This document shows, piece by piece, positions 10,104 through 49,365 of a stretch of 64,000 bases of DNA; position 1 is the first letter of the stretch, and each line of letters opens with the position of its first letter. The notes under the pieces are model-generated. The model saw nothing but the letters and a program-made list of their open reading frames with translations. It had not been told where the DNA came from and made no database searches. Where the stretch lies: the NCBI GenBank assembly GCA_034432655.1, contig DAOUBP010000157.1, positions 6,874 to 70,873 on the forward strand, written 5' to 3'. This DNA is from Anaerolineae bacterium (GTDB lineage: Bacteria; Chloroflexota; Anaerolineae; CG2-30-64-16). The translations under genes were made by a program, and so were the position numbers.

Positions 10104-10210
10104 GTGTTGCGTGCGTACTGCGTATTGCGTACTGCGTACTGCGTATTGCAGAGCTGCGCGCAGTTGTTAGAGTGCGAGATGAAGTACGCAGTACGCAGTG
10201 CACAGTACAC
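10104..10210. repeat. Heptanucleotide tandem repeat (TGCGTAC/TGCGTAT x~6) followed by inverted copies (GTACGCA x3); hairpin-forming
   Basis: Seen directly between convergent genes; probable bidirectional terminator-like structure. Confidence 0.7.
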
Positions 10211-10225
10211 CGGGTGTCAACGTGC

Positions 10226-10834
10226 TTAGAGCTCCTCTCGTAACCTCGCCAGGATCGCCAACGCTCTCTCCAGCCTCTGCTGGTTCGCCGCCACGTTGAA
10301 CCATTGGCTCGCGCCCGAGGGGTGAGGGAGGGGCACGATGATGCGGCCGTCGCGCTCGAAACAGCCGCCGATCAGGTCGGTCATGGCGGTCCCATTGCCC
10401 AGAAATCTCGCGATCGCCAACGCGCCGATGGGGATGAGCACCCGCGGCTGGATCAGCGCCAGCGCAGCCTCCAGCCAGGGCGCGCAGAGCGCCTGCTCGG
10501 CCCGCGTGGGCACGCGGTCCCCGCGGCCGGCCGGGTGCGGGCCAGGGTAGCACAGGGTGATCGCGGTCATGGCCTGCGTGGCGCGAAACTCGGCCTCGGC
10601 GAAGCCGGCCTCCGCCAGCCAGCGGAAGAGCCGCCGGCCGGCCGGGCCGGAGAAGGGCTGATGCGACACCTCGGCCTCGTGCCGGCCGGGCGCCTGGCCG
10701 ATCGTCATGAAGGTCGCGCCGGGGTGAAGGATGAAGATGGGCGTCGAGCCGATAAAGTAGCCCGCCTCCGCGCAGCGGCGACAAGTGGCGAGAGCGGAAC
10801 AGAGAACGTCGAGAGAAGAGATAGGGACGTTCAA
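10226..10834 (-). CDS. Uracil-DNA glycosylase superfamily protein (family 4/5-like)
   Basis: GQAPG motif and C-terminal HPS motif (PLPHPSGAS). Confidence 0.7.
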   Translation of the reverse strand: MNVPISSLDVLCSALATCRRCAEAGYFIGSTPIFILHPGATFMTIGQAPGRHEAEVSHQPFSGPAGRRLFRWLAEAGFAEAEFRATQAMTAITLCYPGPHPAGRGDRVPTRAEQALCAPWLEAALALIQPRVLIPIGALAIARFLGNGTAMTDLIGGCFERDGRIIVPLPHPSGASQWFNVAANQQRLERALAILARLREEL

Positions 10835-10860
10835 GACATCAGTCTCCCGATTTGCGAACT

Positions 10861-12015
10861 CTACACCACATTGTGCTCCCGCACCAGGTCCCCTTCTGCG
10901 AAGCGGCTGAAGCGGAGCTGACGGATGTCCAAGGTATGCGCATGGCCGTCCAGGATCAGCTCGGCCATCAGCAGGCCGGCGACCGGGCCGTGCATGAAAC
11001 CGTGGCCGCTGAAGCCGGCGACGATGTAAAAGCCCGCAGGGTCGCTCAGCCCGTCAATCACCGGGTGCGCGTCGGGGGTCACTTCGTATAGCCCAGCCCA
11101 CTCGCGCAGCAGGCCGGCCCGCTCCAGCAACGGGAAACGCCACATAGCGGTCTCCAGATGGCGCTCGGTCCAGGCGTGATCCACCGACTGGTCGAAGCCG
11201 GGCTTCTCGTCCGGGTTGGACTGGCCGGTGAGGATGCCCCGGCCCTCTCGATGGAAGTAGAGGCTGCGGCTGAAATCTATGACAAAGGGGAAATCGTCCG
11301 GTATTCCCTGCAGCGGGGTGGTGACCACAATCTGACGGCGCAGCGGCACGATCGGCAAATCCACGCCCGCCAGCGCGGCTACCTGGCCGGCCCACGGCCC
11401 GGCCGCGTTCACGACCGCCCGGGTGGCAATCGTCCCTTGGGAAGTCTCGACTGCAGCCACGCGGCCTGCCTCAACGCGGATGCCGGTGACCTCAACCCCG
11501 GTGAGGATTTGCGCGCCCAACCGCCGGGCCGCGGCCGCGTACCCCTGCACCACCCCGTTGGGGTCGGCCAGGCCGTCCCGCGCATGCCACGCGCCGGCGA
11601 TCACCCCCTCCAGGTTCAACAGGGGCACCTTTGCCCGCACCTCGTCGCGTGAAAGGATACGTGAGGGCACCCCCAGCCGGTTCTGCATGGCCACGTTGGC
11701 GCGAAAGGTCGCCAGATCACGCTCGTTATCCAGCAAGAACAGGTAGCCGGTCCAGCGCAGGTCAATCGCCTGGCCGATCTCTTCCTCGAAACGCTCCAGC
11801 ATGGGCAGGCTCAGCAGCGAGAGGCGCACGTTGATCTCGGTGCTGAACTGGTAGCGGATGCCGCCGGCGCACTTGCCGGTGGCCTCGGTGCCCAGGAACT
11901 CATGTTTCTCCAGCAAGACGATGTTCTGACAGCCACGCACAGCCAGATGGTAGGCAGTGCTGGCCCCCATCACCCCGCCGCCGATAATGACGACATCAGC
12001 AGTTTTCGGTAGCAT
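10861..12015 (-). CDS. FAD-dependent oxidoreductase (DAO family; glycine/sarcosine oxidase-like)
   Basis: N-terminal VVIIGGGVMGASTAYHLA Rossmann motif. GGAGGAG RBS upstream. Confidence 0.85.
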   Translation of the reverse strand: MLPKTADVVIIGGGVMGASTAYHLAVRGCQNIVLLEKHEFLGTEATGKCAGGIRYQFSTEINVRLSLLSLPMLERFEEEIGQAIDLRWTGYLFLLDNERDLATFRANVAMQNRLGVPSRILSRDEVRAKVPLLNLEGVIAGAWHARDGLADPNGVVQGYAAAARRLGAQILTGVEVTGIRVEAGRVAAVETSQGTIATRAVVNAAGPWAGQVAALAGVDLPIVPLRRQIVVTTPLQGIPDDFPFVIDFSRSLYFHREGRGILTGQSNPDEKPGFDQSVDHAWTERHLETAMWRFPLLERAGLLREWAGLYEVTPDAHPVIDGLSDPAGFYIVAGFSGHGFMHGPVAGLLMAELILDGHAHTLDIRQLRFSRFAEGDLVREHNVV

Positions 12016-12028
12016 GTCTCCTCCGAGT

Positions 12029-12130
12029 GAATCAGCGAATGAGCGAATGAGCGAATGAGCGAATCAACGAATCAACGAATCAGCGCATCAGCGAATCGGC
12101 GAATCAGCGAATCAGCGAATCGGCGAATGA
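12029..12130. repeat. Heptanucleotide tandem repeat GCGAAT(C/G) about 14 units
   Basis: Seen directly; intergenic. Confidence 0.8.
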
Positions 12131-12137
12131 CGAAGGT

Positions 12138-12608: not shown

Positions 12609-12618
12609 CGGGATAGCT

Positions 12619-13470: not shown

Positions 13471-13500
13471 GATGACCTCACGCTAAGTGTCACGACTTGC

Positions 13501-13553
13501 GGATTGTGGAGTGCGTAACGCGTGATGCGTAATACGTGATTCGCCGATTCGCT
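13501..13553. repeat. Heptad repeats TGCGTAA x3 + GATTCGC x2
   Basis: Seen directly; intergenic. Confidence 0.6.
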
Positions 13554-14117: not shown

Positions 14118-15659
14118 TCAGCGGTTGCGGCCGTACGTCTCGTGCGCCGAAACCCAATCCAGCGATGAAATCGCAGCCGCCAGCGAGATCTCGCCGGCCA
14201 GCGCCACCCCGGCCACGATCTCGGCGAACTTGAGCACCTTGCCCTTGCCGTAGCAGCCCAGGATCTCCAGGCACTCGCGCTGGGTGGCCAGGCCGGTGCC
14301 GCCGCCATAGGTGGCCACGATCAACGACGGCAGGGTCAGGGAAAGGTAAAGATCGTGTTCGGGCGTCAGCTCCGAGTAGATGATGCCGGCCGAGGACTCC
14401 GCAACATTGGCCGCATCCTGACCCGTAGCGATAAAGAGGGCTGTGATCGCGTTGGCCGCGTGCAGGCCGTTGTTGTTGGCACCGGACAGAAACGCGCCCA
14501 CGTTGGCCACCCCCGCATGATAGGCGAGTTGTTCCGGCTCCACGCGCAACTGCTGGATCAGCACATCGCGCTTGATGGTGGCCTCGGCGGTGACGCGCTT
14601 GCCGCGCGTGCGCATGATGTTGATCTGTGAAGCTTTCTTGTCCGTGGCGAAGTTGGATTCCAGATAAAAACGCCGGATGCCGGGATAGTTATCAATGATC
14701 CAGCTGCACGCGGCAAAGGTCGCCCGGCCCACCATGTTCTGGCCAGCCGCGTCCCCGGTGTAGAAGTTAAACCGCAGATAGGCGAACTTGTTTGCCAGGA
14801 AAGGATCAATGTAGCGCAGCTTGGCCACATGGGAGGTCGCCTCGGCCTCCTCCCGGATCTTGTCAATATGCTCCTGCACCCAAACCACGAAATCGCGTGC
14901 GCCGCGGGCATCATCGAAGACGAAAACCGGTGCGCGTTGCATGGCATCATCCACCACGGTGCATTTGACGCCGCCGCACTGGTTCAGCACCTTCATACCG
15001 CGGTTGTACGAGGCCACCAGGGTGCCTTCAGCCGTTGCCAGGGGGATGATGAACTCGCCCTGGGCGTGCTCGCCGTTGATCCGCAGCGGGCCGGCAAACC
15101 CCAACGGCACTTGCGCCACGCCGGTAAAATGCTCGCAGTTGCCTTTAGCCAGATGGGGATCGAAGGAGAAATGGGAGATATGTTGCAGTTTGACGCCGCT
15201 GAAACTTTCAACGAACGCCTGCCTGCGCTTCACCACCTCATCGTTGTAGTCGTCCACAGGGTCACGCGGGATGCGGACCTGCGCCTCCTCCGTCTGAGAG
15301 ATGGCGTCTTCCACGGCAAACTGCAACTTGCCGAACGGCCGCGACTCGAACGCAACGACGATGCCGTGCTTGCCGTCCTTCAACGGCTCCACCGCCAATA
15401 CCACATCCACCACCATGCGCAGCGGAAAACTTAATGGGCGGTCGGGCGTGATCTCGGCCGGGGTCAGGCTCCGGCCGTCCGGCAGGATCAGTTTCACAGC
15501 CTGGAGCGGGACGGTGCGGCCATCGAGGACAATGCTGCGCAGGCCCACCAGCTCGGCGTCGCTCAGCCGGTTCTTGATCGAGAAAACGACCCCCTGCGGT
15601 GTGTTCTTCAGGCTGCCCAGGGTATACAACTTCTTCAAAAGCAGACTCGGGATCAACAT
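14118..15659 (-). CDS. Hydroxymethylglutaryl-CoA reductase (class I catalytic domain) with about 110-aa N-terminal extension
   Basis: HMGR motifs ATAEGTLVASYNRG, GDAAGQNMV (DAMGxN-like) and ATYGGGTG (GTVGGGT-like). Confidence 0.85.
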   Translation of the reverse strand: MLIPSLLLKKLYTLGSLKNTPQGVVFSIKNRLSDAELVGLRSIVLDGRTVPLQAVKLILPDGRSLTPAEITPDRPLSFPLRMVVDVVLAVEPLKDGKHGIVVAFESRPFGKLQFAVEDAISQTEEAQVRIPRDPVDDYNDEVVKRRQAFVESFSGVKLQHISHFSFDPHLAKGNCEHFTGVAQVPLGFAGPLRINGEHAQGEFIIPLATAEGTLVASYNRGMKVLNQCGGVKCTVVDDAMQRAPVFVFDDARGARDFVVWVQEHIDKIREEAEATSHVAKLRYIDPFLANKFAYLRFNFYTGDAAGQNMVGRATFAACSWIIDNYPGIRRFYLESNFATDKKASQINIMRTRGKRVTAEATIKRDVLIQQLRVEPEQLAYHAGVANVGAFLSGANNNGLHAANAITALFIATGQDAANVAESSAGIIYSELTPEHDLYLSLTLPSLIVATYGGGTGLATQRECLEILGCYGKGKVLKFAEIVAGVALAGEISLAAAISSLDWVSAHETYGRNR

Positions 15660-17045: not shown

Positions 17046-19637
17046 CTAGGCCGCGGCCGGCAACGCCGCATTGCCGTCAGACGACGGCGCTTCAACGGCG
17101 GGTGCCGTTATCCCTTTCCTGCGCCGGGCACGCCGCGCGGCCCCGACCTGTGGCGCATCCGCCACGGGCGGCAGCAGCACGCGCGGCAAGATCTCCTCCA
17201 TCCGATCCACCAGGACCAGCTCCAGCTCGCGCTGCACCTGGCGCGGCACGTCAACCAGGTCCTTCTGATTGCGCCGGGGGATCACCACCGTCTTCATGTG
17301 CATACGGTGGGCGGCCATCAATTTCTCTTTAAGGCCGCCGATGGGCAACACCCGGCCGCGCAGGGTGATCTCACCGGTCATCGCCACATCATGGCGGACA
17401 GGGCGACGGCTTAAAGCCGAGATCAAGGCCGCGGCCATGGTGATGCCGGCGCTGGGCCCGTCCTTGGGGATGCTCCCCTCGGGCACATGGATGTGCAGGT
17501 CAATTTTGTCGAAGTCAACCTTCTCGATGCCGAAATCCTTCGCGTGGGCCCGGGCAAAGGTCAACGCGGCCTGAGCCGACTCCTGCATTACCTCGCCGAG
17601 CTGACCGGTTAGCAACAGACTCCCCTTGCCTGGGACCGCCGAAACCTCGACCTGCATCACATCGCCGCCCGCCTCAGTCCAGGCCAGGCCGTTGGCCACC
17701 CCCACCTCATCCGTCTCGTTGGCCAGCCACTCGGAGAATTGCGGCGGGCCCAGGAATTTGTAAACCAGGCTGGGCGTGATGCGCCGCGGCGCCTTCTTAC
17801 CCTCGGCCACGCGGCGGGCAATCTTGCGGCAGATGTTAGCGATCGCCCGCTCCAGGTTACGGACCCCTGCCTCGTAAGTATACTCCCGGATCATCACGCG
17901 CAACGCGGCCGTGCTGAACTGCACCTGGCCGGGCTGCAGGCCATGGGCCTCGAGCTGCCGCGGCACCAGGAACTGCCGCGCGATGGCCAGCTTCTCCTCC
18001 TCGATATACCCCGGAAACTCGATCACCTCCAGGCGGTCACGCAGTGCTGGCGGCACCGGATCCAGGTAGTTCGCCGTGGTGATGAACATCACCTTGCTGA
18101 GATCGTAGGGCACCTCCAGGTAGTGATCGCTGAACGCATGATTTTGTTCTGGGTCCAGCACTTCCAACAACGCCGAAGCCGGGTCCCCGCGGAAGTCCAT
18201 GCCCAGCTTATCAATTTCATCCAGCATGAAAAGCGGGTTGATGGTGCCCGCCGTGTGCATCGTCTGGATGATGCGGCCCGGCAACGCGCCGATGTACGTG
18301 CGCCGGTGCCCGCGGATTTCGGCCTCGTCGCGCACACCGCCCAGGCTCAGCCGCACGAACTTACGCCCCAAAGCCTCGGCAATGGATTTGCCCAGGCTGG
18401 TCTTGCCGGTGCCGGGCGGGCCGACAAAACACAGGATGGGACTCTTCATCTTGTCCTGGGCCAGCTTGCGCACGGCGATGTATTCCAGGATGCGCTCTTT
18501 GACCTTGGGCAAGCCGTAATGATTGCTCTCCAGGATCTTTGCCGCGCGCGCCAGGTCCAGGTTGTCCTCGGTGGCTGTGCTCCACGGTAGCTCCAACAAC
18601 CAGTCTATGTAGTTGCGGACAACCGTGGTCTCCGGTGAGCCGGGCGGGATGGTAGCCAGTTTGGCGATCTCCTTTTCGGCCCGGGCGTGAGCCTCCGGAG
18701 GCAGGCCTGCCTTGGCCAGTTTCTCCCGCAACTCATTGATCTCCTGTTGGACCTCGTCCCCTTCGCCCAACTCAGATTGAATGGCGCGCATCTGCTCGCG
18801 CAGATAGTATTCGCGCTGGCTCTTGTCCACCTCCTGCTGGACCTGGGTCTGGATGCGATCCTCCAGCTCCAACACGTCCAGCTCCTGGCCCAAGATGATG
18901 CTCAGGCGCTGCAGGCGTTGGTTGGCATCCAACATTTCCAGCAACTCCTGGCGCTGTGAAGTCTCCAGGTCCAGGACATGAGCCAGCAGATCGGCCAGGC
19001 TGCCCGGCTCCTTTTCGTTCATCGCTGCGACATAGGCGTCCTCGGGGACGTTGGGGTTGAGGCTGACGACCTTCTCAAACAGCGCCAGCACGGCGCGCAT
19101 CAGCGCTTCGCTGGCCATGTCGTGGCGCTCATCTTCATACAACGGCACCCCGCGCACGCGTAGGTAAGGCTCAGTGTCTATCAGCTCGATGATCCGTACC
19201 CGTTCGATGCCCTGCACCAAGACAGTGGTACCGCCGTCAGGCATGCGCAGGATACGGCCTACCTCGACCGCAGTGCCGATGGTGTACAGGTCGGCGAGAT
19301 CGGGGTTGATGATCTCAGGGTTGCGCTGCGCGACCACCAGCAGCGGCACTTCCATTTCCTCGGCCGCCTCTACGGCGCGCACCGACTGATCACGGCTCAG
19401 GAACAGCGGGGTGACCAGGTTCGGGAACACCACCGTATCGGGCAAAGGCAGGACGGGATACTCGTTGCCCTCCAGCCCCTCCAGGTCGCGGCCAGGTGCA
19501 CGCCGGGGCTCCTGCTCCTTGCGGCTGCGTCGCCGCGCCAAAAGATGAATCAACGGCCATTCAGGCACCATACGCGGGCCGATATTACGATCTAACACGT
19601 TCAAACCTACCTCCACACAAACACGATCCATTCCCAT
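17046..19637 (-). CDS. lon: ATP-dependent Lon protease (LonA)
   Basis: N-terminal LPLPDTVVFP, Walker A GPPGTGKTSLGKS, protease Ser motif DGPSAG. The true start may be an internal Met. Confidence 0.95.
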   Translation of the reverse strand: MGMDRVCVEVGLNVLDRNIGPRMVPEWPLIHLLARRRSRKEQEPRRAPGRDLEGLEGNEYPVLPLPDTVVFPNLVTPLFLSRDQSVRAVEAAEEMEVPLLVVAQRNPEIINPDLADLYTIGTAVEVGRILRMPDGGTTVLVQGIERVRIIELIDTEPYLRVRGVPLYEDERHDMASEALMRAVLALFEKVVSLNPNVPEDAYVAAMNEKEPGSLADLLAHVLDLETSQRQELLEMLDANQRLQRLSIILGQELDVLELEDRIQTQVQQEVDKSQREYYLREQMRAIQSELGEGDEVQQEINELREKLAKAGLPPEAHARAEKEIAKLATIPPGSPETTVVRNYIDWLLELPWSTATEDNLDLARAAKILESNHYGLPKVKERILEYIAVRKLAQDKMKSPILCFVGPPGTGKTSLGKSIAEALGRKFVRLSLGGVRDEAEIRGHRRTYIGALPGRIIQTMHTAGTINPLFMLDEIDKLGMDFRGDPASALLEVLDPEQNHAFSDHYLEVPYDLSKVMFITTANYLDPVPPALRDRLEVIEFPGYIEEEKLAIARQFLVPRQLEAHGLQPGQVQFSTAALRVMIREYTYEAGVRNLERAIANICRKIARRVAEGKKAPRRITPSLVYKFLGPPQFSEWLANETDEVGVANGLAWTEAGGDVMQVEVSAVPGKGSLLLTGQLGEVMQESAQAALTFARAHAKDFGIEKVDFDKIDLHIHVPEGSIPKDGPSAGITMAAALISALSRRPVRHDVAMTGEITLRGRVLPIGGLKEKLMAAHRMHMKTVVIPRRNQKDLVDVPRQVQRELELVLVDRMEEILPRVLLPPVADAPQVGAARRARRRKGITAPAVEAPSSDGNAALPAAA

Positions 19638-36397: not shown

Positions 36398-36418
36398 TTC
36401 TATCTGCGTTCCCTATAA
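36398..36418. promoter_or_regulatory. 21-nt motif TTCTATCTGCGTTCCCTATAA, copy 2
   Basis: Exact match to 499..519. Lies in the divergent intergenic region between the epimerase (minus) and the 36458 (plus) gene. Confidence 0.35.
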
Positions 36419-37402: not shown

Positions 37403-39994
37403 GTGATTGCGACCCCTGCTTCCCATTGGACCCCAGCCCCCGCCGCACGACGCGGTGCAACCTGGCTCGTCATCGGGCTGATGCTGCTGTTCGCTGCCTG
37501 GTTCTCGGCCTACAGCATCCGTCTACATGACGCACACCTGACCCATAAGGCCGACTTGGGGCAGATTGATCATGCCATCTGGAACACGGCCCACGGCCGG
37601 TTACTGCAAGAGATAAAGGATGATCACCTCAGCACGCGGCTGACCGACCACGTGGAACCGATTTTTTTGTTGGTAGCCCCGATCTTCTGGCTGTGGGATG
37701 ACGTGCGCGCCCTGCTGGTGTTGCAAGCGGTGGCGTTGGCTGCGGGCGCCTGGCCGATTTACCTGTTCGCGCGCCAGAAGCTCATCCGGGTGGCGCCCGG
37801 CGCAATGGCGGAGTGGGGTGCAGCGGTATTTGCGGCAGCCTATCTTCTGTACCCGGCGCTGCAAGCAGCCGCCGTCGCCGAGTTCCACGCGCTGCCACTG
37901 GCTGCGCCGCTGATCGCGGCCGCGGTGTGGGCAGCCGAAGAGCAACGCTGGGGCCGGTTTGTCCTCTGGACTGTAGCAGTGATGGCGGTTCAAGAAGGCG
38001 CGGCGCTGTTGGGTGCCACGCTGGGCGCCTATGTGGCGGTCACCAGCGGTCGCGCCGCCTGGCAGAACCGGGTTTCGCGGAGAAACCCGATTTCGACGGG
38101 GCCACTCGCCAAGGGCGTCGTCAGTGGCCTGGGCGTCTTCCTGGCCGGCCTGGTTTGGTTCGGCCTTGCTACCTTCGTCATCATCCCCCGCTTTGCGGCT
38201 GCGGCTTACGCCCTGGATCAGAGCCCTTACGTGGCCCGTTATGGCGCGCTGGGCGATTCTTTCGGAGATGTGTTGATCGCCCTGGTCACCCGACCTGCGA
38301 CAGTCGTGCAAATCGCAGGGGAGCCGCTGCGCGTGCAATATCTGCTGGGACTGCTGCTGCCCGCGGCCGGGCTGGCATTACTCAGCCCCGGGCTACTGCT
38401 GGCCAGCGCACCCTTGCTGCTGGCGAACCTGCTCAGCGCGTTCCCCTTGCAGTTCTCGGGTGAATCGCACTATTCTGCTGCGTTGGTACCATTCTTTGTG
38501 CTGGCGGCTGCCTCAGGTGCGGCACGGGTGCTGGGACGTCAGAAAGCGCAACAAGGCTGGGCAGCCTTGATGGGCAACCGGCTGCCGGCCTTTATGTTCA
38601 GCGTCGTAGCGATGTGCGCCATCGTGTTTCAAGTGGCCGAAGGGTTCACACCCATCGGCGGCGAATTCCGACGGAGCCCCAGCCGAGGCTGGCCGGAGGT
38701 GACTGCCCATCACCGACTGCTGGAGCGCCTCGCCCGCGACATCCCGGCCGACGCAGCCGTCTCTACCACACCGCCGCTACATCCACATCTCTCGCACCGC
38801 CAGCGCATCTACCTTTTCCCGGTCATCGGGGACGCGGACTATGTGCTGGTAGATGTGGCCGGCACCACCGACATGCACCCGGCCGATGTCAAGGCCAAAC
38901 TGGAGCGACTGATCGCCACCGGCGAGTTTGGCGTGGTGGCTGCCGAGGACGGCTATCTGCTCTTGGCCCGTGATGCAAGCAGGCCAGTTGGCGGCGTTCC
39001 CGATCCCTTCTTCGACTTCGCCCGGGCCAAAAAGCCACCACGCTACCCTCTGGATGTGACATTTGGCGATCATCTCACACTGATCGGGTATGATGTGGAG
39101 GATAACCCCAAATGGCGGCTGACGCGCTTGCGGTTCTACTGGCAGGTTGACAAGCCCTTGCCTGCCGACGCGACTTTAAAGTTTCAAGTGATGACGCCCT
39201 GGGGCGAAATCGCTGATGATAGTGCGTTGCGTCCCCCGCCAGCACTCCTGTGGTACCCGCCAGCGCAATGGCGTCCGGGAGAAACGTTGATGATCGAGAC
39301 CCTGCCGTGGTTCATGCCACGGGCCTGGGCCGCAACGCTGTCCCTCACAACCAGCTCCGGACCGTTGTGGCCGCAGGTCAACGCCGCATCCCCCGTCCCC
39401 GAGCTGGAAATAGCCCCGGATGGCCGGTTGCGCCTGCCGGCATGGACGCGAAAAGAAGGCGCATTGGTGCCGCTGAGCGGCTCGCCCTATCCCTCCGAAC
39501 CGGCCGAGGCGCGCTTTGCCCAGGGGAACTGGACAGTCCGATTGCTGGAATGGGCGGCGCCGATGGCGGCAGCGCCGGGTGGCGTTCTGCCGGTGATGCT
39601 GCATTGGCGCGCTAACGGCCCCGCCGGACAAGACCTGGCAGTGTTCCTGCATTTGCGCGACGCCACAGGGCGCACCGTAGCCCAGGGCGATGCCGGCCCG
39701 GCCTGGTTCGTGCCACGGCCGACCTCACAGTGGCCGACCAAAAACGGCGATCCCGCGGGCCTCTGGAGTGCCCATGCGATTTCACTGCCGGACGACATGC
39801 CGGAAGGCCGTTACGAGCTGGTGGTAGGCTGGTACGATTGGCAGAGCGGTATGCGGCTCCCATCAGTGGACGCAGTGGGGAACCCCAACGGAGATGAATA
39901 CGTCCTTGGCCCCGTAACGCTTGACCAACGGGCCGTACCGCGACCTGATATCGCTTGCCTGTTGCTGCCGGAAAGCTGTGCGGCGCAGGAGTGA
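37403..39994 (+). CDS. DUF2079-family polytopic membrane protein (putative GT-C-like glycosyltransferase) with large C-terminal extracytoplasmic domain
   Basis: HDAHLTHKADLGQIDHAIWNTAHG N-terminal motif. Multi-TM. Confidence 0.65.
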   Translation: MIATPASHWTPAPAARRGATWLVIGLMLLFAAWFSAYSIRLHDAHLTHKADLGQIDHAIWNTAHGRLLQEIKDDHLSTRLTDHVEPIFLLVAPIFWLWDDVRALLVLQAVALAAGAWPIYLFARQKLIRVAPGAMAEWGAAVFAAAYLLYPALQAAAVAEFHALPLAAPLIAAAVWAAEEQRWGRFVLWTVAVMAVQEGAALLGATLGAYVAVTSGRAAWQNRVSRRNPISTGPLAKGVVSGLGVFLAGLVWFGLATFVIIPRFAAAAYALDQSPYVARYGALGDSFGDVLIALVTRPATVVQIAGEPLRVQYLLGLLLPAAGLALLSPGLLLASAPLLLANLLSAFPLQFSGESHYSAALVPFFVLAAASGAARVLGRQKAQQGWAALMGNRLPAFMFSVVAMCAIVFQVAEGFTPIGGEFRRSPSRGWPEVTAHHRLLERLARDIPADAAVSTTPPLHPHLSHRQRIYLFPVIGDADYVLVDVAGTTDMHPADVKAKLERLIATGEFGVVAAEDGYLLLARDASRPVGGVPDPFFDFARAKKPPRYPLDVTFGDHLTLIGYDVEDNPKWRLTRLRFYWQVDKPLPADATLKFQVMTPWGEIADDSALRPPPALLWYPPAQWRPGETLMIETLPWFMPRAWAATLSLTTSSGPLWPQVNAASPVPELEIAPDGRLRLPAWTRKEGALVPLSGSPYPSEPAEARFAQGNWTVRLLEWAAPMAAAPGGVLPVMLHWRANGPAGQDLAVFLHLRDATGRTVAQGDAGPAWFVPRPTSQWPTKNGDPAGLWSAHAISLPDDMPEGRYELVVGWYDWQSGMRLPSVDAVGNPNGDEYVLGPVTLDQRAVPRPDIACLLLPESCAAQE

Positions 39995-40061
39995 CAGGGA
40001 TAGGAGGCACAGAGACACGGAGACGAAGGGTCAAGGGAAACGCGGAGAACAGCAGGCCAGC

Positions 40062-42191
40062 GTGAAACGAAACCGACGCGCCGATCCTGCTCGGCTCTGG
40101 CTGGCAGCCATGTTGCTGCTGGCCCTCGCCCTGCGCGTCTACCGGCTGGACGCGCAAAGTCTGTGGTACGACGAGGCAGTCACCGCGCAGGTGGCCGGCC
40201 GCGGCATCGCCGAGCTCACCCGCTGGACCGCCGATGACATCCAACCGCCGCTGTATTACTACGTGGTGGCCGGTTGGACGCGGCTGGCCGGCCGCTCCGA
40301 ATGGGCGCTGCGTTTCCCTTCTGCCTGCTTCGGCATCCTGACGGTGCCGCTGCTTTGGGCGGCCGGCCGGCGCCTGTTTGGCCGCAGGAACACCGGGCGC
40401 TGGGCGGCCGGCCTCGCGGCGTTGCTGGCTGCGACCTTACCGCTCTACGTCTACTACGCTCAGGAAGCACGCATGTACACGCTGCTGACGTTCCTGGGCG
40501 CCCTGGCCGGGTATGCCCTGCTGCGGACGACGGCCAGGAAGCCGGGGGCAGAGGACAGGGAGCAGGGGACAGGCGCCAGGGAGCAGGCAACCGAGGACAG
40601 GCAGCAGGAGACAGAGGACAAAGGGGCCAGGGAAACCAGTTCAGGCCGGCCAGGCGGATTTGCGCCCTTGGTTGTCAGGGCAACAGGCTCGACCTGGTGG
40701 CTCGTTTTCGTGCTGGCTGCGGCGGCCTTGCTCTACACCCACTACTTCGGCATCTTCTTGCTGGGCGCATATGGCATCTGCTGGTTGGCGTGGTGGACCC
40801 TGACAGCTCACGCGACAAGGCTGCGCTCGCTGACCGCGTTCGCGATCTCCGCCCTGACGATCATCGTGCTCTATCTGCCCTGGCTGCCGGCCATGCTCAA
40901 CCGTTATCGGGCCGACGCATCCTACTGGCGGGGCGCGCTGAAACTGGGCGAAGCGCTGCGCCACGTCGCGATCAACTTCAGCGTGGCCGCACCGGAGATG
41001 ATGCTGGAAAGCGAGGCCGTGCGACTGCTGCCCATCTTCGGCGGGGCCTTTGCCCTGGCCTTGATCTCGCTCTTCTGGCAGGGCAGACATGCGCGCCAGG
41101 CCAGCCTTCTGCTGATCGTCCTGCTGGTGCCGATAATCGCTGTGCTGTTCCTGGCCTCGCGCACCCCTAAGTTCAACCCACGCTACCTGATGCTGGCATC
41201 ACCGGCGTATGTGCTGCTGTTGGCGGGCGGCGTCAGCGCGCTGCGTGGACGACGTGAAAAGCCCCCGACACGACAAGGCATGCAGCACGCCACACGCAGC
41301 ACACCATACGCCATACGCCACACCTCAGCCCTCCTGCTGACCGCCTTCCTGGTTGCAGCGTCTCTGGTCAGCCTTCGTAACTGGTTCACCGACCCGGCCT
41401 TCACCAAGGCCCAGTGGCGCGAGTTGACCGCCTTGGTGCGCGCCGAACGCGCGCCAGATGAAGCTGTGCTGCTGGTCTCCGGCCATGCGTATCCGGCCTG
41501 GGACTACTACGCGGCCGATATCCCGGTTGTGCGGCTGCCCCAGATCGAGATCCTGGACGTCAACGCCGTGTTGGATTTCGGTGTCGGCGCAGAGCTGGCC
41601 ACTGCCCTGGCCGGCAAAAAGGGCGCCTGGCTGGTAAGCTGGCAGGATGAGGTAGTGGATCCCGTGGGGATCGTGCCCTACCTCCTGGAGCGCGCTGGGG
41701 CCGAGCAGGAAGTCCCCCGCAGCTTCTGGCACCTGAAACTACGGCACTGGCGGCTGCAGCCTGATGCCGCCTTCCCGACCGAGCCGCAACCCCAGCACCT
41801 CCAGGGCGCCAACTTCGACCACAAACTGGCGCTGTTGGGCTGGGATGACCCGGTGGGTGGCGAGATCATCATGTACTGGCGCGTGCTCAACATGCTGACC
41901 CAAGACTACCAGATCGCGCTGGTGATCGAGGACGCGGCAGGCAACCGGTTGGGCCAGTGGGATGGCCGGCCGGCCGGTTACCATTACCCGACGTTTCGCT
42001 GGCGGCCCGGCCAGGTTTTGTTCGGCCGTTACCCGCTCCCGCTGCCGGCTGGGGCGGCCGCCGGGGATTACACCATCACTTTGACCGTCTACGACCCCGC
42101 CGACCCCAGCGGCCTGGACATCCGTGACGTGGCCGATAACCCGGCCGGCAAACAGGCACGCCTGGGGCCGGTACGGATGAGGGGGGATTAG
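40062..42191 (+). CDS. GT-C glycosyltransferase, ArnT/PMT (GT39/GT83)-like, with heptad-repeat-encoded low-complexity inserts
   Basis: YDEAVTAQVAGRGIAE...DIQPPLYYYVVAGWTRLAG N-terminal loop motif. Multi-TM. The start (GTG 40062 or ATG 40110) is uncertain. Confidence 0.7.
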   Translation: MKRNRRADPARLWLAAMLLLALALRVYRLDAQSLWYDEAVTAQVAGRGIAELTRWTADDIQPPLYYYVVAGWTRLAGRSEWALRFPSACFGILTVPLLWAAGRRLFGRRNTGRWAAGLAALLAATLPLYVYYAQEARMYTLLTFLGALAGYALLRTTARKPGAEDREQGTGAREQATEDRQQETEDKGARETSSGRPGGFAPLVVRATGSTWWLVFVLAAAALLYTHYFGIFLLGAYGICWLAWWTLTAHATRLRSLTAFAISALTIIVLYLPWLPAMLNRYRADASYWRGALKLGEALRHVAINFSVAAPEMMLESEAVRLLPIFGGAFALALISLFWQGRHARQASLLLIVLLVPIIAVLFLASRTPKFNPRYLMLASPAYVLLLAGGVSALRGRREKPPTRQGMQHATRSTPYAIRHTSALLLTAFLVAASLVSLRNWFTDPAFTKAQWRELTALVRAERAPDEAVLLVSGHAYPAWDYYAADIPVVRLPQIEILDVNAVLDFGVGAELATALAGKKGAWLVSWQDEVVDPVGIVPYLLERAGAEQEVPRSFWHLKLRHWRLQPDAAFPTEPQPQHLQGANFDHKLALLGWDDPVGGEIIMYWRVLNMLTQDYQIALVIEDAAGNRLGQWDGRPAGYHYPTFRWRPGQVLFGRYPLPLPAGAAAGDYTITLTVYDPADPSGLDIRDVADNPAGKQARLGPVRMRGD
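40532..40640 (+). repeat. Heptad-periodic repeat (xxxCAGG units) inside GT-C CDS
   Basis: Encodes RKPGAEDREQGTGAREQATEDRQQETEDKGARE. A second heptad tract (CATACGC units) lies at about 41281-41322. Confidence 0.6.
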
Positions 42192-42287
42192 GGAGTGCGG
42201 ATGGCGAATTACGGACTGCCGCTCATGAGAATAATTTGAGTTGCAATTTTGACGTTGGGTAATCTATCGTTTAGACTCTCACCACCA

Positions 42288-42333
42288 TTCGTTGATTCGC
42301 CGATTCGCTGATTCGCCGATTCGCTATTCGCTC
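42288..42333. repeat. Heptad tandem repeat GATTCGC x6 (reverse complement of the GCGAATC family)
   Basis: Seen directly, upstream of the 42349 gene. Confidence 0.75.
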
Positions 42334-42348
42334 ATGCGGAGGTTTCTC

Positions 42349-43763: not shown

Positions 43764-44822
43764 ATGGACGCGCAACACGGAGTACGCAATACGCAATACG
43801 GAGTACGCAATACGCAATACGGAGTACGCAATACGCTCGCCATCATCGTCGTCAGCTACAACGTGCGTGATTTGTTGCGCGCCTGCCTGCAAGCCACGTA
43901 CGCCAGCCTGGCGCTCAGCCCGGAGATCGCGGCAACCGTGTGGGTGGTAGACAACGCCTCGGCCGATGGCAGCGCCGAGATGGTAGCGGCCGAATTCCCC
44001 CAAGCGCGCTTGATCGCCAGCCCCCAGAATCTGGGCTTCGCCGGCGGCAACAACTTGGTGTTGCATGCACTGGGCTTTGGAGATTCAACACAACAGGATG
44101 ATCGGAAACACTCCCCAAGCCCCAATCCCCAATACGTCCTTCTGCTCAACCCCGACGCCGAACCCATCGGCGACGCCATCGGACAGATGGTCCGTTTCTT
44201 GCGCGAACACCCGGGAGTTGGTGGCGCCGGCGCGCAGCTCCAGTACCCCGATGGCAGATTTCAGCACGCCGCGTTCGCCTTTCCGGGGCTGCTGCAACTG
44301 TGGTTCGACCTCTTCCCCCCGCGGCCGCGGCGGCTGTTAGATTCCCGCCTCAACGGCCGCTACCCCAGACGGCGCTACCAGGCCGGGCAACCCTTCCCGG
44401 TTGATTTCGTCTTGGGCGCGGCGTTGCTGGTGCGGCGAGAGGCGATCGCGGCGGTGGGCCTGCTGGATGAGGGCTACTTTATGTACGCCGAAGAGGTGGA
44501 CTGGTGCTGGCGGATGCGCCGCGCGGGCTGGCCGCTATGGTGCGTGCCCTCGGCCCGCGTGATCCATCATGGCGGCGCCAGCGCGCAGCAATTCCGCTCG
44601 CAATCGTTCGTCAACCTCTGGCGCAGCCGCCAGCGCTTGTATTCTCGTTTCTATGGGCCGCTGCGGCAAAGGCTGGCAAGCTGGATCGTGCGCCTGGGCA
44701 TGGCAGCCGAGATCAGGCGGGCAAAAGCCGGCTACAGACGCGGGGAGATCAGCATGGAAGAACGGGAGGCCCGAATCCAGGCAGCGCAAACCGTGAAAAA
44801 GCTATTCGCGAGGAACAGATGA
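43764..44822 (+). CDS. Glycosyltransferase family 2
   Basis: IIVVSYNVRDLL...VDNASADGS...GFAGGNN GT2 motifs. The 5' end carries a repeat-encoded (GVRNTQY)x3. Confidence 0.75.
   Translation: MDAQHGVRNTQYGVRNTQYGVRNTLAIIVVSYNVRDLLRACLQATYASLALSPEIAATVWVVDNASADGSAEMVAAEFPQARLIASPQNLGFAGGNNLVLHALGFGDSTQQDDRKHSPSPNPQYVLLLNPDAEPIGDAIGQMVRFLREHPGVGGAGAQLQYPDGRFQHAAFAFPGLLQLWFDLFPPRPRRLLDSRLNGRYPRRRYQAGQPFPVDFVLGAALLVRREAIAAVGLLDEGYFMYAEEVDWCWRMRRAGWPLWCVPSARVIHHGGASAQQFRSQSFVNLWRSRQRLYSRFYGPLRQRLASWIVRLGMAAEIRRAKAGYRRGEISMEEREARIQAAQTVKKLFARNR
43779..43836 (+). repeat. 21-nt unit (GGAGTAC-GCAATAC-GCAATAC) x about 3 within the 5' coding region of the GT2
   Basis: Seen directly. Confidence 0.75.
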
Positions 44823-46645: not shown

Positions 46646-46794
46646 AGGCCTATGCTCCTTTCCGTAATCGTGGCGGCGTATGCGCTTTGACGATCAGCCT
46701 GCGGGGTATAGCCGATCGCTGGCCGGAATTTCGGGCGCATGAGGCCGCCGGATGTGGGTAAACAGATTTTAATCTGAGTTGTGCGAAAAGTCAA

Positions 46795-47568
46795 TTAACT
46801 CGCGGCGTCCGGGGCAGGCTGGCCTGGCTCCCAACGCGCCCGGGCCAGGGTGAAGCCGCCGACCCACGACGCGCCTCCGCCGCGCAATGCCTCGGCGCAG
46901 GCCTGCAACGTGCTGCCGGTAGTACAGACATCATCCACCAGCACGATTCGCTTTCCCGCCACGCTGCGGGTACAAGCGAACGCCCCTACTACGTTCAGAG
47001 CGCGCTCTGAACGTCCCAGCCCAACCTGCTGCCGCGTCGCTCGGACGCGAACCAACGTTTGCTCGTCCACCGGGACACCCACGGCCTCGGCCAGGCCCTT
47101 CGCCAACAGCGCCGCCTGATTGTAGCCACGCTCAGCGACCCGCTGGCGGTGCAATGGCACGGGCACGATCACATCTGCCGGGGCAGGGATACGTGGCCAG
47201 GCAGCCGCCATCAGCGCGGCCAACGGCTCTGCGAGGCTGCGGTTGTTCTCGTATTTCAGCTGATGAATAGCATCCCGCAGAGGCGGAGCGAAGACAGCGG
47301 CCGAGATGATGACGTCCAACGGTGAAGGGAGCGCCAGACAATCCGGGCAGAGCAACTCGTCCGGGCCCGGCCGGCCACAACGCGGACAGGCCGGCGCAGG
47401 CGGTGGCACGACCCGTGCCAGGCAAGCCCGACAAAACACCTCCCCCATGCGCCCACAACCGGGGCAGCGCGGGGGGTAAAGCACATCAAGCAGGATCCGG
47501 CCGGCCCGCCGCAACTCACGCCGGAGCCCTGTGAACCTGGCGGCACCGGTTAAAGCCATCCCCATCAT
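46795..47568 (-). CDS. comF: ComF family protein (zinc-ribbon + phosphoribosyltransferase domain)
   Basis: CPGCG/CPRCG double zinc ribbon. PRTase motif VLVDDVCTTGST. Confidence 0.8.
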   Translation of the reverse strand: MMGMALTGAARFTGLRRELRRAGRILLDVLYPPRCPGCGRMGEVFCRACLARVVPPPAPACPRCGRPGPDELLCPDCLALPSPLDVIISAAVFAPPLRDAIHQLKYENNRSLAEPLAALMAAAWPRIPAPADVIVPVPLHRQRVAERGYNQAALLAKGLAEAVGVPVDEQTLVRVRATRQQVGLGRSERALNVVGAFACTRSVAGKRIVLVDDVCTTGSTLQACAEALRGGGASWVGGFTLARARWEPGQPAPDAAS

Positions 47569-47590
47569 CCGTCCCTCTCCCGGGGACGTC

Positions 47591-47746
47591 TCACTGACGG
47601 CCGGTGAACAGGCCCTGGACGGTGTTGATGACCCATAAACGAAGGTCATCACCCATGATCAGCAAAATGGCCACGATGATGATGGCGATCAGAACGATGA
47701 TCAGGGCCAGCTCAAGGAGGCTGGCACTAGAACCTTGATTACGCAT
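47591..47746 (-). CDS. Small (51 aa) membrane peptide, Flp/type IV pilin-like
   Basis: MRNQGSSASLLELALIIVLIAIIIVAILLIMG... with RBS AAAGGTAGAGG. Below the ORF-track size cutoff. Confidence 0.35.
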   Translation of the reverse strand: MRNQGSSASLLELALIIVLIAIIIVAILLIMGDDLRLWVINTVQGLFTGRQ

Positions 47747-47844
47747 CCTCTACCTTTCTCTCAACCTCTGGCGCCAGCCTGATGATACACCGGCCGCGCT
47801 GTCATGTGAAGTATCCATCTCATCAATCACCTGCTCTGCCTCTG

Positions 47845-48612
47845 TCAACGGCCGGACGGCGCCAGCGCGGCCCGGATGCGACGCCCTTTGCGCAAGAGCC
47901 GCCGGAGCGCAAGCCGCAGAACGGTGCGCGCGGCTTTCAGGATCTCGTTGCGGGAGATCTTGGATTGTCCCAGGCGACGATCAACGAAAACGATCGGCAC
48001 CTCACCGACAGTGAAGCCGAGCTGCTGACAATTGTACAACATCTCGATCAGATATGAATAGCCATTGGCACGAATCGCATCCAGATCAATGGCTTCCAGC
48101 ACCGCGCGACGATAGCAACGAAAGCCCGCTGTGCAATCGCGCGCGTGCAGGCCCAGTACCAGGTGTGCCAGCGTGTTTGCGCCCCAACTCAGCAACTTGC
48201 GCTCAACTCCCCACAGGCGCACCCCGCCCCCTGGGACATACCGCGACCCGATGACCAGGTCGTAACGCTGGCTGGCCTCCAACAGGGCAGGCAGATAAGA
48301 AGGATCATGGGAGAAATCGGCGTCCATCGTCAGGATCAAATCTGCTCCCATCGCCAGGGCCTGCCGAAAGCCGGCTGTGTAGGCCGTGCCCAGGCCTAAC
48401 TTGCCGGCCCGATGGATGACGTGAATATCATCGCGGCCGCGCGCCAGCTCATCGGCCAGCTGGCCGGTGCCATCGGGAGAATTGTCGTCTACGATGATGA
48501 CCTGGATCGGGGCAGACAGCGCTGAGATCGCCGCAATGAGAGCGCGCAGGTTCTCTCGCTCATTGTAAGTCGGCAATACAAGGACCACGTTAGGACGATA
48601 AGTATGGGGCAC
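47845..48612 (-). CDS. GT2 polyprenol-phosphate mannosyl/glucosyltransferase (DPM1/Ppm1-like)
   Basis: VVLVLPTYNERENL and IIVDDNSPDGT motifs. Start likely the GTG after GAGGAAAA. The longer ORF would run into the divergent promoter. Confidence 0.8.
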   Translation of the reverse strand: MPHTYRPNVVLVLPTYNERENLRALIAAISALSAPIQVIIVDDNSPDGTGQLADELARGRDDIHVIHRAGKLGLGTAYTAGFRQALAMGADLILTMDADFSHDPSYLPALLEASQRYDLVIGSRYVPGGGVRLWGVERKLLSWGANTLAHLVLGLHARDCTAGFRCYRRAVLEAIDLDAIRANGYSYLIEMLYNCQQLGFTVGEVPIVFVDRRLGQSKISRNEILKAARTVLRLALRRLLRKGRRIRAALAPSGR

Positions 48613-48755
48613 GAACTGTTTTCCTCGATGAGAATGGCCAGACTTTAACTGCCATGCACGTTTCAAGCCTATTCTAGCACAACCTGACATACGACGCCAG
48701 TGTAATGGGGGCAGTGGTGCAATTGATGAAACTAGAAAAATCTTGCACAAACCCC

Positions 48756-48783
48756 TTGACATTCTCGTGAAAATCATTATAAT
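48756..48783 (+). promoter_or_regulatory. Near-consensus sigma70 promoter TTGACA / 16 bp / TATAAT
   Basis: Read directly; 60 nt upstream of the Rrf2 start. Confidence 0.55.
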
Positions 48784-48802
48784 TGAGACTAGTTTAGTCT
48801 CA
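48784..48802. promoter_or_regulatory. Perfect palindrome TGAGACTA-gtt-TAGTCTCA abutting the -10; candidate Rrf2 operator (autoregulation)
   Basis: 8-bp arms, 3-bp spacer, located at the predicted transcription start. Confidence 0.5.
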
Positions 48803-48842
48803 ATTCCTCAACGCAAGTTCTTACGCAACCGGCTGAGCTGCC

Positions 48843-49265
48843 ATGATCACTATCAACCGTGAGACCGACTATGCAGCTCGCGTGCTCCTGCATCTGGCAC
48901 TCCAGGAACCAGGCAGCCGCGTCACTGCGCAACAAATAGCCGCGCAGCGCGTGATCCCTCGTGCTCTGGTGCGCCGGGTGGTCAGCCGCCTCAGCGCCGC
49001 CGGTCTCGTGATCACGACGCGCGGCAGCGAAGGCGGGATCAGCCTGGCCCGGCCAGCTGCGCAGATCAGCCTGTTGGATGTCGTGGAAGCCCTCGAGGGG
49101 CCACTGGCTCTCAACATCTGCACCATCGAGCCCGAAGTGTGCCCCTTGATCCCGGTTTGCACCGTACACGACGCCTGGGTCCACGCCCGGCAGCTATTGC
49201 GCGACACCCTGGCCCAGATCACATTCGACAGGCTGGCGAACAAGAAGGAGGTGGGTAGCGGGTAG
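48843..49265 (+). CDS. Rrf2 family transcriptional regulator (IscR/NsrR-like, 3 Cys)
   Basis: N-terminal wHTH (YAARVLLHLA). C-x6-C-x5-C cluster ligands. Confidence 0.85.
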   Translation: MITINRETDYAARVLLHLALQEPGSRVTAQQIAAQRVIPRALVRRVVSRLSAAGLVITTRGSEGGISLARPAAQISLLDVVEALEGPLALNICTIEPEVCPLIPVCTVHDAWVHARQLLRDTLAQITFDRLANKKEVGSG

Positions 49266-49267
49266 GA

Positions 49268-49365
49268 GCGAAACAGCGAAGCAACGAATCATGAATCAGC
49301 GAATCAGCGAATCACGAATTCACTGTTCGTCCGTTCGCCGTTTGCTGATTCGCCCATTCACCGTC
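49268..49365. repeat. Heptad tandem repeat CGAATCA x~5 followed by its inverted copy (TGATTCG); large hairpin
   Basis: Seen directly between the Rrf2 gene and cydA. Confidence 0.75.

Follow-up and report, generated by a model that had tools for sequence, protein, structure and literature searches.

Heptameric and octameric long simple-sequence repeats between and within genes of an Anaerolineae bacterium

Tandem arrays in the window

A stretch of 64,000 nt from an Anaerolineae bacterium (contig DAOUBP010000157.1; referred to at its full length as "the window") carries tandem arrays of 7-nt and 8-nt units, which are real and occur far above chance. These arrays are long simple-sequence repeats (LSSRs), a class shared with the short tandemly repeated repetitive (STRR) sequences, the GGGAATC repeats of Xanthomonas, and the TAACTGA repeats of Beggiatoaceae. 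They occur between genes and also inside genes, where they are translated. With modest confidence, we lean to the view that such repeats are born by slippage and template switching and persist under weak constraint, that those in coding regions are filtered for reading frame and hydrophilic translation, and that local co-option is possible.

Arrays were detected with Tandem Repeats Finder (TRF) on the window and by direct sequence reading, and 30 dinucleotide-preserving shuffles of the window served as the null model. TRF reported 19 rows with a score of at least 50 (0.33 in the shuffles, largest shuffle value 2) and 16 rows of period 7 (1.4 in the shuffles). A preliminary description of this DNA, made from its letters only, had reported STRR-like tandem arrays of short units and had named composition and assembly artefacts as what might explain them away; composition does not explain the arrays. 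The unit words are nearly confined to the arrays, with counts inside/outside arrays of 12/0 for CGAATCA, 13/1 for TGCGTAC, and 14/4 for GCGAATC, and counts outside arrays are at or below the third-order Markov expectation. The arrays are thus local amplifications and not clusters of a dispersed motif. As had been noted, the unit families GCGAATC and GATTCGC are reverse complements of each other. The units had been described as heptanucleotides, which holds for the commonest period (16 rows) but not for the 7 rows of period 8; these include the longest arrays, at 12029-12128, 42287-42331, and 49267-49319. The GC content of the window is 62.8%, not 65%.

Genes were mapped by codon statistics, cross-checked with gene calls in relatives, and domains were assigned with Pfam. 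There are about 12 heptamer/octamer loci in the 64 kb of the one window covered, half of them in genes, and the array density is about one per 5 kb. Arrays cover 6.5% of the intergenic but 1.15% of the coding bases and are thus 5.7-fold denser between genes. Nevertheless, 676 of the 1,024 array bases (about two-thirds) are coding, so that "intergenic", as the arrays had been called, describes them only in part. Head-to-tail units of 5-11 nt beyond what composition yields, a predominance of heptamers, and enrichment in non-coding sequence, all of which characterize LSSRs, are found in the window. Variation in copy number, a further LSSR trait, is found between species-level relatives but not between near-identical genomes.

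The best protein matches of the window are from metagenome-assembled genomes (MAGs) of Anaerolineae / Chloroflexota. Syntenic relatives, given with the identity of their CydA to that of the window, are L001 (97%), L003 (94%), L217/L218 (94%), L226 (91%), L208-L216 (90%), L124 (85%), L125 (82%), L126 (74%), and L127 (69%). The independent Logan assembly L002 agrees with the NCBI MAG contig L001 over 6,784 nt with zero mismatches, arrays included. The reading frame is intact through every in-gene array of the window, and complete isolate genomes also carry arrays of the same kind. An assembly artefact as the source of the arrays is excluded.

It is extremely improbable that chance, faulty assembly, or mobile elements of the repetitive extragenic palindromic (REP) or miniature inverted-repeat transposable element (MITE) type gave rise to the arrays. 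Shuffles, independent assemblies, and preserved frames argue against the first two; mobile elements are disfavoured because the arrays lack conserved ends and target-site duplications, their flanks can be aligned directly across species, and units occur almost only in tandem. What can be said for this explanation is that arrays can break or gap assemblies: the HGW-Chloroflexi-1 MAG L039 has a run of N (scaffold gap) at about 3370-3440, within a (CGAATCAG)n array. Long arrays can hence break short-read assemblies, and array lengths in MAGs are lower bounds. Nine Logan contigs which end 62-70 nt upstream of cydA were considered as further cases of breakage at an array; this was dropped, as their ends are ordinary sequence.

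Arrays between genes

The sites between genes are as follows.

10112-10149, strand not assigned: TGCGTAY, 5.4 copies (TRF, 90% matches)
10183-10208: inverted AGTACGC, 3.7 copies, partner of the array at 10112-10149, with a 33-nt centre containing a small GC palindrome between them
12029-12128, minus strand: octamer array, 12.5 copies (TRF period 8, 90% matches, score 144)
13512-13553, minus strand: short mixed array of 7/8-nt units (TRF period 14, score 44)
39995-40061, plus strand: GA-rich degenerate spacer, no TRF row at score 30 and not a detectable tandem array
42287-42331, plus strand: octamer array GATTCGCY, 5.5 copies (TRF period 8/16)
49267-49319, plus strand: (A)GCGAATC(A), 6.9 copies (TRF period 8)
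up to 49365, plus strand: inverted arm GTTCGYC/GATTCGCC, partner of the array at 49267-49319
50770-50795, plus strand: decayed remnant ACGTAT TGCGTAG TGTGTAC, roughly three degenerate units that do not reach TRF score 30

Five of the seven sites listed in the preliminary description are thereby confirmed as arrays, while those at 50770-50795 and 39990-40060 are not called by TRF.

The pair at 10112-10208 occupies the only convergent spacer with an array (10101-10225), between a gene for a LuxR-type response regulator (plus strand, ending at 10100) and a UDG-family gene (minus strand, ending at 10226). The co-directional spacers with arrays are 12016-12137, 13471-13551, 42192-42348, 49266-49398, and 50767-50807. 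In the first of these, the octamer array extends from the stop codon of a 156-aa gene (12138) to the Shine-Dalgarno sequence and ATG of a gene for a flavin adenine dinucleotide (FAD) oxidoreductase (12015). Its unit is GAATCAGC on the plus strand and GCTGATTC on the sense strand of the flanking genes; the orthologous spacer of L125 also holds an 8-mer array, with the unit GATTTGCC. The array at 13512-13553 has four units of TGCGTAA/CGCGTGA, followed by TTCGCCGA TTCGC, and is located between a thioesterase-family gene (ending at 13552) and the start of a short-chain dehydrogenase/reductase (SDR) gene (13470). The array and inverted arm at 49267-49365 lie in the spacer between a gene for an Rrf2-family regulator and cydA. 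The remnant at 50770-50795 lies in the cydA-cydB spacer, directly 5' of the Shine-Dalgarno sequence of cydB, and aligns with clear arrays in L001, L208, L217, L226, and L003. The degenerate spacer at 39995-40061 precedes a PMT_2-family gene; comparison with the L003 orthologue, together with the reading frame, indicates a start at 40062 for this gene. The six divergent spacers of the window, which are AT-richer and must accommodate promoters, hold no arrays, although these numbers are too small for significance.

Arrays had been reported upstream of gene starts, and several indeed stand directly before ribosome-binding sites, with between a few and about 30 nt left between array and Shine-Dalgarno sequence. 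The clearest case is the array at 42287-42331, which makes up the 5' untranslated region (UTR) of a gene for a CHU_C-domain protein, with a promoter-like site upstream (TTGACG-17-TAGACT at 42249-42277, from a promoter scan) and a Shine-Dalgarno sequence and ATG (42349) downstream. Promoter-like site, Shine-Dalgarno sequence, and start are conserved in L003, where the array has about 8.5 units as compared to 5.5 in the window.

These placements favour a reading which we consider possible but unlikely, namely that the arrays are dedicated cis-regulatory elements, acting in mRNA or DNA, by which translation of the downstream gene or the fate of its transcript is adjusted. A factor encoded in the lineage would bind the unit specifically (e.g., a protein of the oligonucleotide/oligosaccharide-binding (OB)-fold or cold-shock type, with one protein per unit), and copy number would set the strength. 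The same role has been proposed for TAACTGA repeats (PMC4679880), and deletion of heptamer repeats in Nostoc altered the output of a recO reporter, with modest effects (bioRxiv 10.1101/2022.06.06.494920). Other observations argue against such elements. The orientation of intergenic arrays relative to the gene (A vs. T on the sense strand) is unbiased at 9:9, although the sample is small; a preference for the T-rich (GATTCGC) orientation beside Shine-Dalgarno sequences was dropped because of this even split. The same units are abundant in coding regions, where they are translated, the downstream genes share no common function, and no candidate binding protein was identified.

Arrays inside genes

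Seven in-gene arrays had been missed in the preliminary description.

21939-22057, plus strand: composite in-frame array in the gene for a 954-aa ILEI-domain membrane protein (21221-24085) (TRF and translation)
40535-40620, plus strand: in-frame G/A-rich array in a gene for a PMT_2-family glycosyltransferase, 21-nt superunit of three 7-mers (TRF period 21, score 95)
41282-41323, plus strand: second in-frame array of the PMT_2-family gene, period 14 (TRF)
43771-43836, plus strand: heptamer array CGCAATA/CGGAGTA, 21-nt superunit, 3.1 copies, 97% matches (TRF)
52954-53128, plus strand: G-rich octamers GACGCGGR/GGGACGCA, then the C-rich inverse CGTCTCCC (TRF)
53370-53475, plus strand: CAGCCNC, 15 copies (TRF)
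54064-54143, plus strand: heptamers of the ACGCAAT family, 21-nt superunit, encoding HNTQDAIHNTQYGIHNPQS (TRF and translation)

The array in the ILEI-domain protein gene runs from four units of TGCGTAC through AATACAG/AATACGA, AGTACGC, and AATCCGC to AATCCCC, and encodes the loop VLRTAYSVLRTKYRIRSAQYAVQNTEYTVRNPQSAIPNPQS. When 16 homologues with identities as low as 52% are aligned, three hypervariable loops with differing periodic peptides stand out, e.g., five copies of STHYALR in homologue P0123, and the array corresponds to one of these three loops. In the PMT_2-family glycosyltransferase, the array at 40535-40620 encodes GAEDREQGTGAREQATEDRQQETEDKGARE; in the orthologue from L003, this position is taken by another array (35-nt superunit, 161 nt), and the BLAST alignment breaks there. 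At the gap which matches the second array (41282-41323), L003 has 21.6 copies of GGGGACGC. The array at 43771-43836 codes for the N-terminal residues of a GT2 glycosyltransferase (MDAQHGVRNTQYGVRNTQYGVRNT-LAIIVVSYN), as the sequence has no start codon between the array and the Pfam GT2 domain (from residue 30). Orthologues carry arrays at the same place, with 4.7 units in L001 and 14 units in L003.

The remaining three arrays are in cydDC (51993-55949), which codes for a single fused CydD-CydC transporter protein of 1,318 aa. The array at 52954-53128 corresponds to 42 aa inserted where the membrane domain of CydD adjoins its ATPase domain (residues ~321-365 of CydDC), that at 53370-53475 to a 38-aa Pro/Ala/Ser-rich insertion within the CydD ATPase domain (residues ~441-481), and the heptamers at 54064-54143 form part of the ~75-aa CydD-CydC linker (residues ~655-730). 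The fusion of CydD and CydC is shared by the window, L001, L003, L125, and L217. In the more distant outgroup L127 (12468-15956) they are encoded by separate genes (571 aa and 569 aa) with a 63-nt spacer. BLASTP of the CydDC protein from the window against CydD and CydC from L127 reveals two clean insertions and one linker in the former; neither of the CydD insertions is present in the aligned CydD of L127. In CydDC from L001 and L003, all three places likewise hold insertions, which differ in unit and length, the counterpart of 53370-53475 being shorter. Judged from such alignments, the in-gene arrays are true insertions.

Coding arrays bear two probable signatures of selection. Of 29 coding arrays, 14 have a best TRF period divisible by three (21, 24, or 48), as compared to 2 of 20 intergenic arrays (Fisher p = 0.006), and A exceeds T on the sense strand in 17 coding arrays vs. 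3 (p = 0.003), the background A/(A+T) of coding sequence being 0.47; both tallies pool orthologous arrays, which are not independent. Because the sense strand is A- or G-rich, the encoded peptides are hydrophilic with a 7- or 8-residue periodicity, and form loops and linkers.

A unit length that is not a multiple of three implies that a change by one unit shifts the frame of a gene, and phase variation in other bacteria is known to rely on simple-sequence repeats (background in PMC4692102). The arrays might accordingly be contingency loci, where units of 7 or 8 nt are frequently added or lost, which would toggle genes by frameshift or alter UTR-driven expression. We regard this as very improbable. 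No frame-disrupted allele was found in any orthologue examined, the genes involved have housekeeping functions (cydDC, glycosyltransferases), and UTR arrays are downstream of the -10 element, leaving promoter spacing unaltered. The stasis of arrays in near-identical genomes, described below, also argues against it.

Hairpins formed by inverted arms

Arrays had been described as often followed by inverted copies that create long imperfect hairpins. Such hairpins were confirmed, but array-plus-inverted-array hairpins are restricted to three sites of the window. Folding was compared to shuffles, with a negative z for more structure. The hairpin at 10101-10215 has -55.4 kcal/mol (z -3.2) on the plus and -46.7 kcal/mol (z -3.8) on the minus strand, and that at 49262-49370 has -35.6 kcal/mol (z -3.2). 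The third is inside the ILEI-domain protein gene (21935-22060: -44.9 kcal/mol, z -5.7), where the hairpin spans about 21935-22000 and is formed by the first 66 nt of the array. Pure direct arrays fold worse than shuffles (12020-12137, z +2.0; 43765-43840, z +3.2), the array at 42287-42331 is unstructured (z +0.5), and no significant structure was found at 13512-13553 (z +0.25). The G-rich/C-rich pair at 52954-53128 was considered as a hairpin but dropped for the window, where it is indistinguishable from shuffles (z +0.3); the cydD pair is modestly structured in L003 (z -2.4) and L001 (z -2.9).

The arrays had been called terminator-like, for which we found nothing beyond location. A terminator scan identified no site at 10101-10225, 12016-12137, or 13471-13551 and none at any array, and no T-tract follows the hairpins of the window on sequence reading. 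An Rfam scan of the whole window matched only three tRNAs and no known RNA family at arrays, so that riboswitches and other Rfam families were rejected. Clustered regularly interspaced short palindromic repeats (CRISPR) were also rejected, the units being far too short and spacers being absent.

The array-plus-inverted subset might nevertheless be selected as stem-loops which punctuate transcripts, acting as terminators or attenuators independent of a U-tract, as RNase III sites, or as 3'-end stabilisers, with the repeats merely building the stems. We consider this quite unlikely. The hairpins are very stable, with no shuffle folding as well, and one of them is between convergent genes (10101-10215). 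That in the Rrf2-cydA spacer separates a regulator gene from an operon it possibly controls and is kept in L003, L217/L218, and partly L226; the layout recurs at another locus in L016, where an array plus inverted array follows a stop codon and precedes the next Shine-Dalgarno sequence. Punctuation by stem-loops is, however, difficult to reconcile with the lack of T-tracts and terminator-scan matches, with the strong hairpin in a coding region (21939-22004), with the majority of arrays having no inverted arm, and with the hairpin missing from the Rrf2-cydA spacer of L001, L208, and L219.

Orthologous arrays in relatives

A comparison of unit families across genomes, as proposed in the preliminary description, showed the same sites with differing units between species, and identity between near-identical genomes. 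Spacers and loops are array-filled in relatives too, with units and copy numbers differing while flanking genes are 72-86% identical in DNA sequence; among the closer relatives, cydAB DNA is 78-87% identical. Shared positions are the Rrf2-cydA and cydA-cydB spacers, the CHU_C 5' UTR, the GT2 N-terminus, the three CydDC sites, and the two PMT_2 loops. The Rrf2-cydA spacer is occupied as follows.

Window: GCGAATCA plus its inverse
L003: GCGAATCA plus its inverse as in the window, three times longer
L217 (L217/L218): similar hairpin
L226: decayed hairpin, architecture kept in part
L001: only CGCAATC, four copies, no hairpin

The L003 version of this spacer (341 nt) folds with -125 kcal/mol (z -7.8). 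Units in the cydA-cydB spacer are CATCGTA in L001 and L208, GATTCGCC in L003 and L217, and of the GCGTAAA type in L125, with the remnant in the window. That the unit at one spacer differs in sister species (GCGAATCA vs. CGCAATC; CATCGTA vs. GATTCGCC) argues against dedicated cis-regulatory elements. The unit families TGCGTAC, CAATACG, GATTCGC, and GGGGACGC recur out to L126 and are not found in L127; that such few families are common to the clade is in favour of such elements.

Among the metagenomic matches listed, 12 of 80 cydA loci at 55-85% identity carry 7/8-mer arrays, including 4 of the 5 at 71-75% identity; none of the matches listed exceeds 85% CydA identity.

Three side observations concern the relatives. 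The cydAB contig L219-L225 is identical in samples of several sequencing projects, one version being present in at least 20 samples, which points to a clonal Anaerolineae population of wide distribution or to an enrichment common to these samples. L125 has 6.9 copies of the 25-nt palindromic unit TGTATCGCAAGCTTCAGCTTGCGTT at 18340-18512. Two copies of the 26-nt unit AGCGGCGTCGAGCCGCCGCAAGCCAG are found both in L124 (6485-6535) and in L125 (1637-1687).

Other phyla and known repeat families

Species-representative genomes were scanned for the exact pattern (CGAATCA[N])x3. At least 120 loci in many phyla match, with about one expected by chance (hand estimate from the size of the pattern). Among the matches listed, about 20 loci are from Chloroflexota; other hosts are Lysobacterales (Luteimonas, Lysobacter, others), Burkholderia, Bacteroidota, Latescibacterota, Gemmatimonadota, and Acidobacteriota. 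Period 7 is by far the commonest at these listed matches, with 192 arrays (the query unit itself in only 74 of them), as compared to 71 arrays of period 8. Composite arrays such as those in the window also occur in L078 and L115.

The STRR sequences, said to have been described by Mazel and colleagues in 1990, are reportedly tandem heptanucleotides of heterocystous cyanobacteria. The arrays of the window seem to resemble them as tandemly amplified heptanucleotides scattered over many non-coding sites in a filamentous bacterium, as far as can be judged from the about 12 loci of this one window. They differ in host (Anaerolineae / Chloroflexota instead of a heterocystous cyanobacterium), in the prominence of octamers and coding arrays, and in their units: STRR1 (CCCCAGT), STRR2 (TTGGTCA), and STRR3 (CAACAGT) are not tandem in the window. 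The same holds for TAACTGA and GGGAATC. The arrays are thus not STRR1-3, TAACTGA, or GGGAATC repeats in the strict sense but belong to the same general class.

The heptamers GGGAATC of Xanthomonas and GGGGA(T/C)T of Nostoc are mostly intergenic and near neighbouring open reading frames (ORFs) (Rehm et al., 2015, PMC4692102). Some GGGAATC repeats of Xanthomonas occur as inverted pairs able to form stem-loops, and their position is kept while length and sequence vary between sister species (PMC4692102). The arrays described here are similar in having tandem heptamers beside ORFs, inverted pairs, and occupation of the same spacers in sister species with variable length, and GGGAATC is only one base apart from GCGAATC. 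In contrast to the G-run in each unit of Xanthomonas and Nostoc, G-runs are absent from the main units here (GCGAATCA, TGCGTAC, CGCAATA), which are therefore not quadruplex-forming. G-rich 8-mers (GGGGACGC; G-runs occur at 52954-53081 and in L003) could form quadruplexes, as judged from their sequence. Further differences are that octamers are as prominent as heptamers, that a large fraction is translated in genes, and that the host is from Chloroflexota.

TAACTGA direct repeats have been described in marine Beggiatoaceae, some Cyanobacteria, and Bacteroidetes, where they precede start codons and are now and then found within ORFs (MacGregor, 2015, PMC4679880). The likeness appears to extend to heptamer direct repeats near starts, singletons that are not enriched, scattered phyla, and occasional in-ORF repeats coding for 7-residue peptide repeats. 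However, TAACTGA is present only as one singleton in the window and not in tandem, there are many unit families rather than one dominant unit, arrays are longer, and inverted arms are frequent.

As relayed by these two papers (PMC4679880, PMC4692102), Mrazek et al. (2007) reported LSSRs with units of 5-11 nt, with heptanucleotides as the commonest class in many bacterial genomes, and proposed polymerase slippage; the class is phylogenetically scattered over Burkholderia, Xanthomonas, cyanobacteria, and actinobacteria. The arrays described here fall in this statistical class, with heptanucleotides likewise commonest. In what is relayed of that survey, units that are a multiple of three are likeliest in coding regions, whereas in the window 7- and 8-nt units are common in genes, the whole array being in frame. 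The arrays had been presented as a novelty outside heterocystous cyanobacteria. This cannot be upheld, since heptamer LSSRs are documented well beyond these (PMC4679880, PMC4692102) and CGAATCA arrays occur in many phyla; our literature search found no published description of such repeats in Chloroflexota.

Origin and maintenance of the arrays

According to the reading that we prefer, arrays would originate and change by slipped-strand mispairing, and inverted arms by template switching during replication. Units would drift by point mutation followed by re-amplification, which would explain how a single array can grade from TGCGTAC via AGTACGC and AATCCGC to AATCCCC. The repeats are seen to persist where constraint is weak, i.e., in 5' UTRs, in intercistronic and convergent spacers, and in surface loops or linkers of proteins. 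Inside genes, the frame is kept and three-unit super-periods are enriched, presumably by selection. By their folds, direct arrays are structure-poor spacers before ribosome-binding sites, and array-plus-inverted-array pairs are very stable stem-loops, either of which may be co-opted locally. No dedicated machinery would be needed.

Several points weigh against this reading. Slippage itself was not observed. An array is identical across nine samples (clonal Logan sets with identical CydA), and arrays are unchanged between two 99.93%-identical MAGs (8 SNPs, i.e., single-nucleotide polymorphisms, and 1 indel apart), all of these being consensus assemblies. The arrays are hence not visibly hypermutable. 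Before the ribosome-binding site of cydB, L001 (7905-7945) and L208 (1460-1500) share a (CATCGTA)4.5 block with identity at 40 of 41 positions, including the same irregular unit, although cydAB is only 83% identical and the 16 nt between the stop codon and the block are randomised. From this alignment, purifying selection is suggested for at least this one array. Few unit families span deep divergence (TGCGTAC and CAATACG in L126, at 74% CydA identity; CGAATCA across phyla), which plain slippage of arbitrary sequence does not predict. Finally, the hairpin layout of the Rrf2-cydA spacer is kept in at least four species. Stasis and conservation keep both the cis-regulatory and the punctuation explanation alive, the former being favoured by the array-specific conservation between L001 and L208 and by the stability of arrays between near-identical genomes.

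A more far-reaching proposal is that the arrays are the visible part of a sequence-specific system spanning many phyla. The AATC-CG and GTAC-GC unit families would be made or maintained by a dedicated activity and be read by a nucleic-acid-binding protein that counts units and sets translation or transcript fate. This would explain why the same units occur in Chloroflexota, Lysobacterales, Bacteroidota, and Latescibacterota, why arrays are stable and not hypermutable, and why one array is conserved beside a randomised spacer. We consider it decidedly unlikely.

Other features of the window

A 45-aa Cys/Gly-rich peptide, MTAIDLNELEVVEQSVVQSGASTTGGVLCGIGCSGWICGLGCGWV, is encoded by an ORF at 2263-2400 with its own Shine-Dalgarno sequence and without a Pfam match. 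Downstream are genes for a beta-propeller/FG-GAP protein (2486-3739) and a radical S-adenosylmethionine (SAM) protein (3751-4275). Judged from this gene content, the region 2263-5179 looks like a precursor of a ribosomally synthesized and post-translationally modified peptide (RiPP) with its maturation genes.

The 21-mer TTCTATCTGCGTTCCCTATAA occurs twice as an exact copy, at 499-519 and 36398-36418 (0 expected). The motif AGGATGCTYGCTCCKCAG is found at 519-536 (plus strand), 455-472 (minus strand, inverted), and 51930-51947 (plus strand), the last copy being adjacent to a CCTCAGATGCG...CGCATCTGAGG palindrome (region 51870-51947). These elements represent a second, unrelated family of small intergenic sequences, which could be either a REP-/MITE-like element or a regulatory site.

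ARAGORN and Rfam both identify tRNA genes for Leu-CAG (58089-58176) and Met-CAT (58674-58747 and 58895-58968). A tRNA-Ser called by ARAGORN in a coding region (15330-15419) is probably false because it is without Rfam support.

Implications

The analysis extends heptamer/octamer LSSRs to a dense case in Anaerolineae (Chloroflexota), which adds a lineage and not a new system. It provides clean examples of repeats that reshape proteins, where units that are not a multiple of three are read in all three frames as periodic hydrophilic loops; the heptamer run within the linker of the fused CydD-CydC protein is one of these. For annotation, repeat-filled N-termini and linkers are to be taken as real coding sequence, and for assembly, it has to be considered that arrays can cause gaps. 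The orthologous loci from the window, L001, L003, L125, L208, L217, and L226 represent a usable comparative set.

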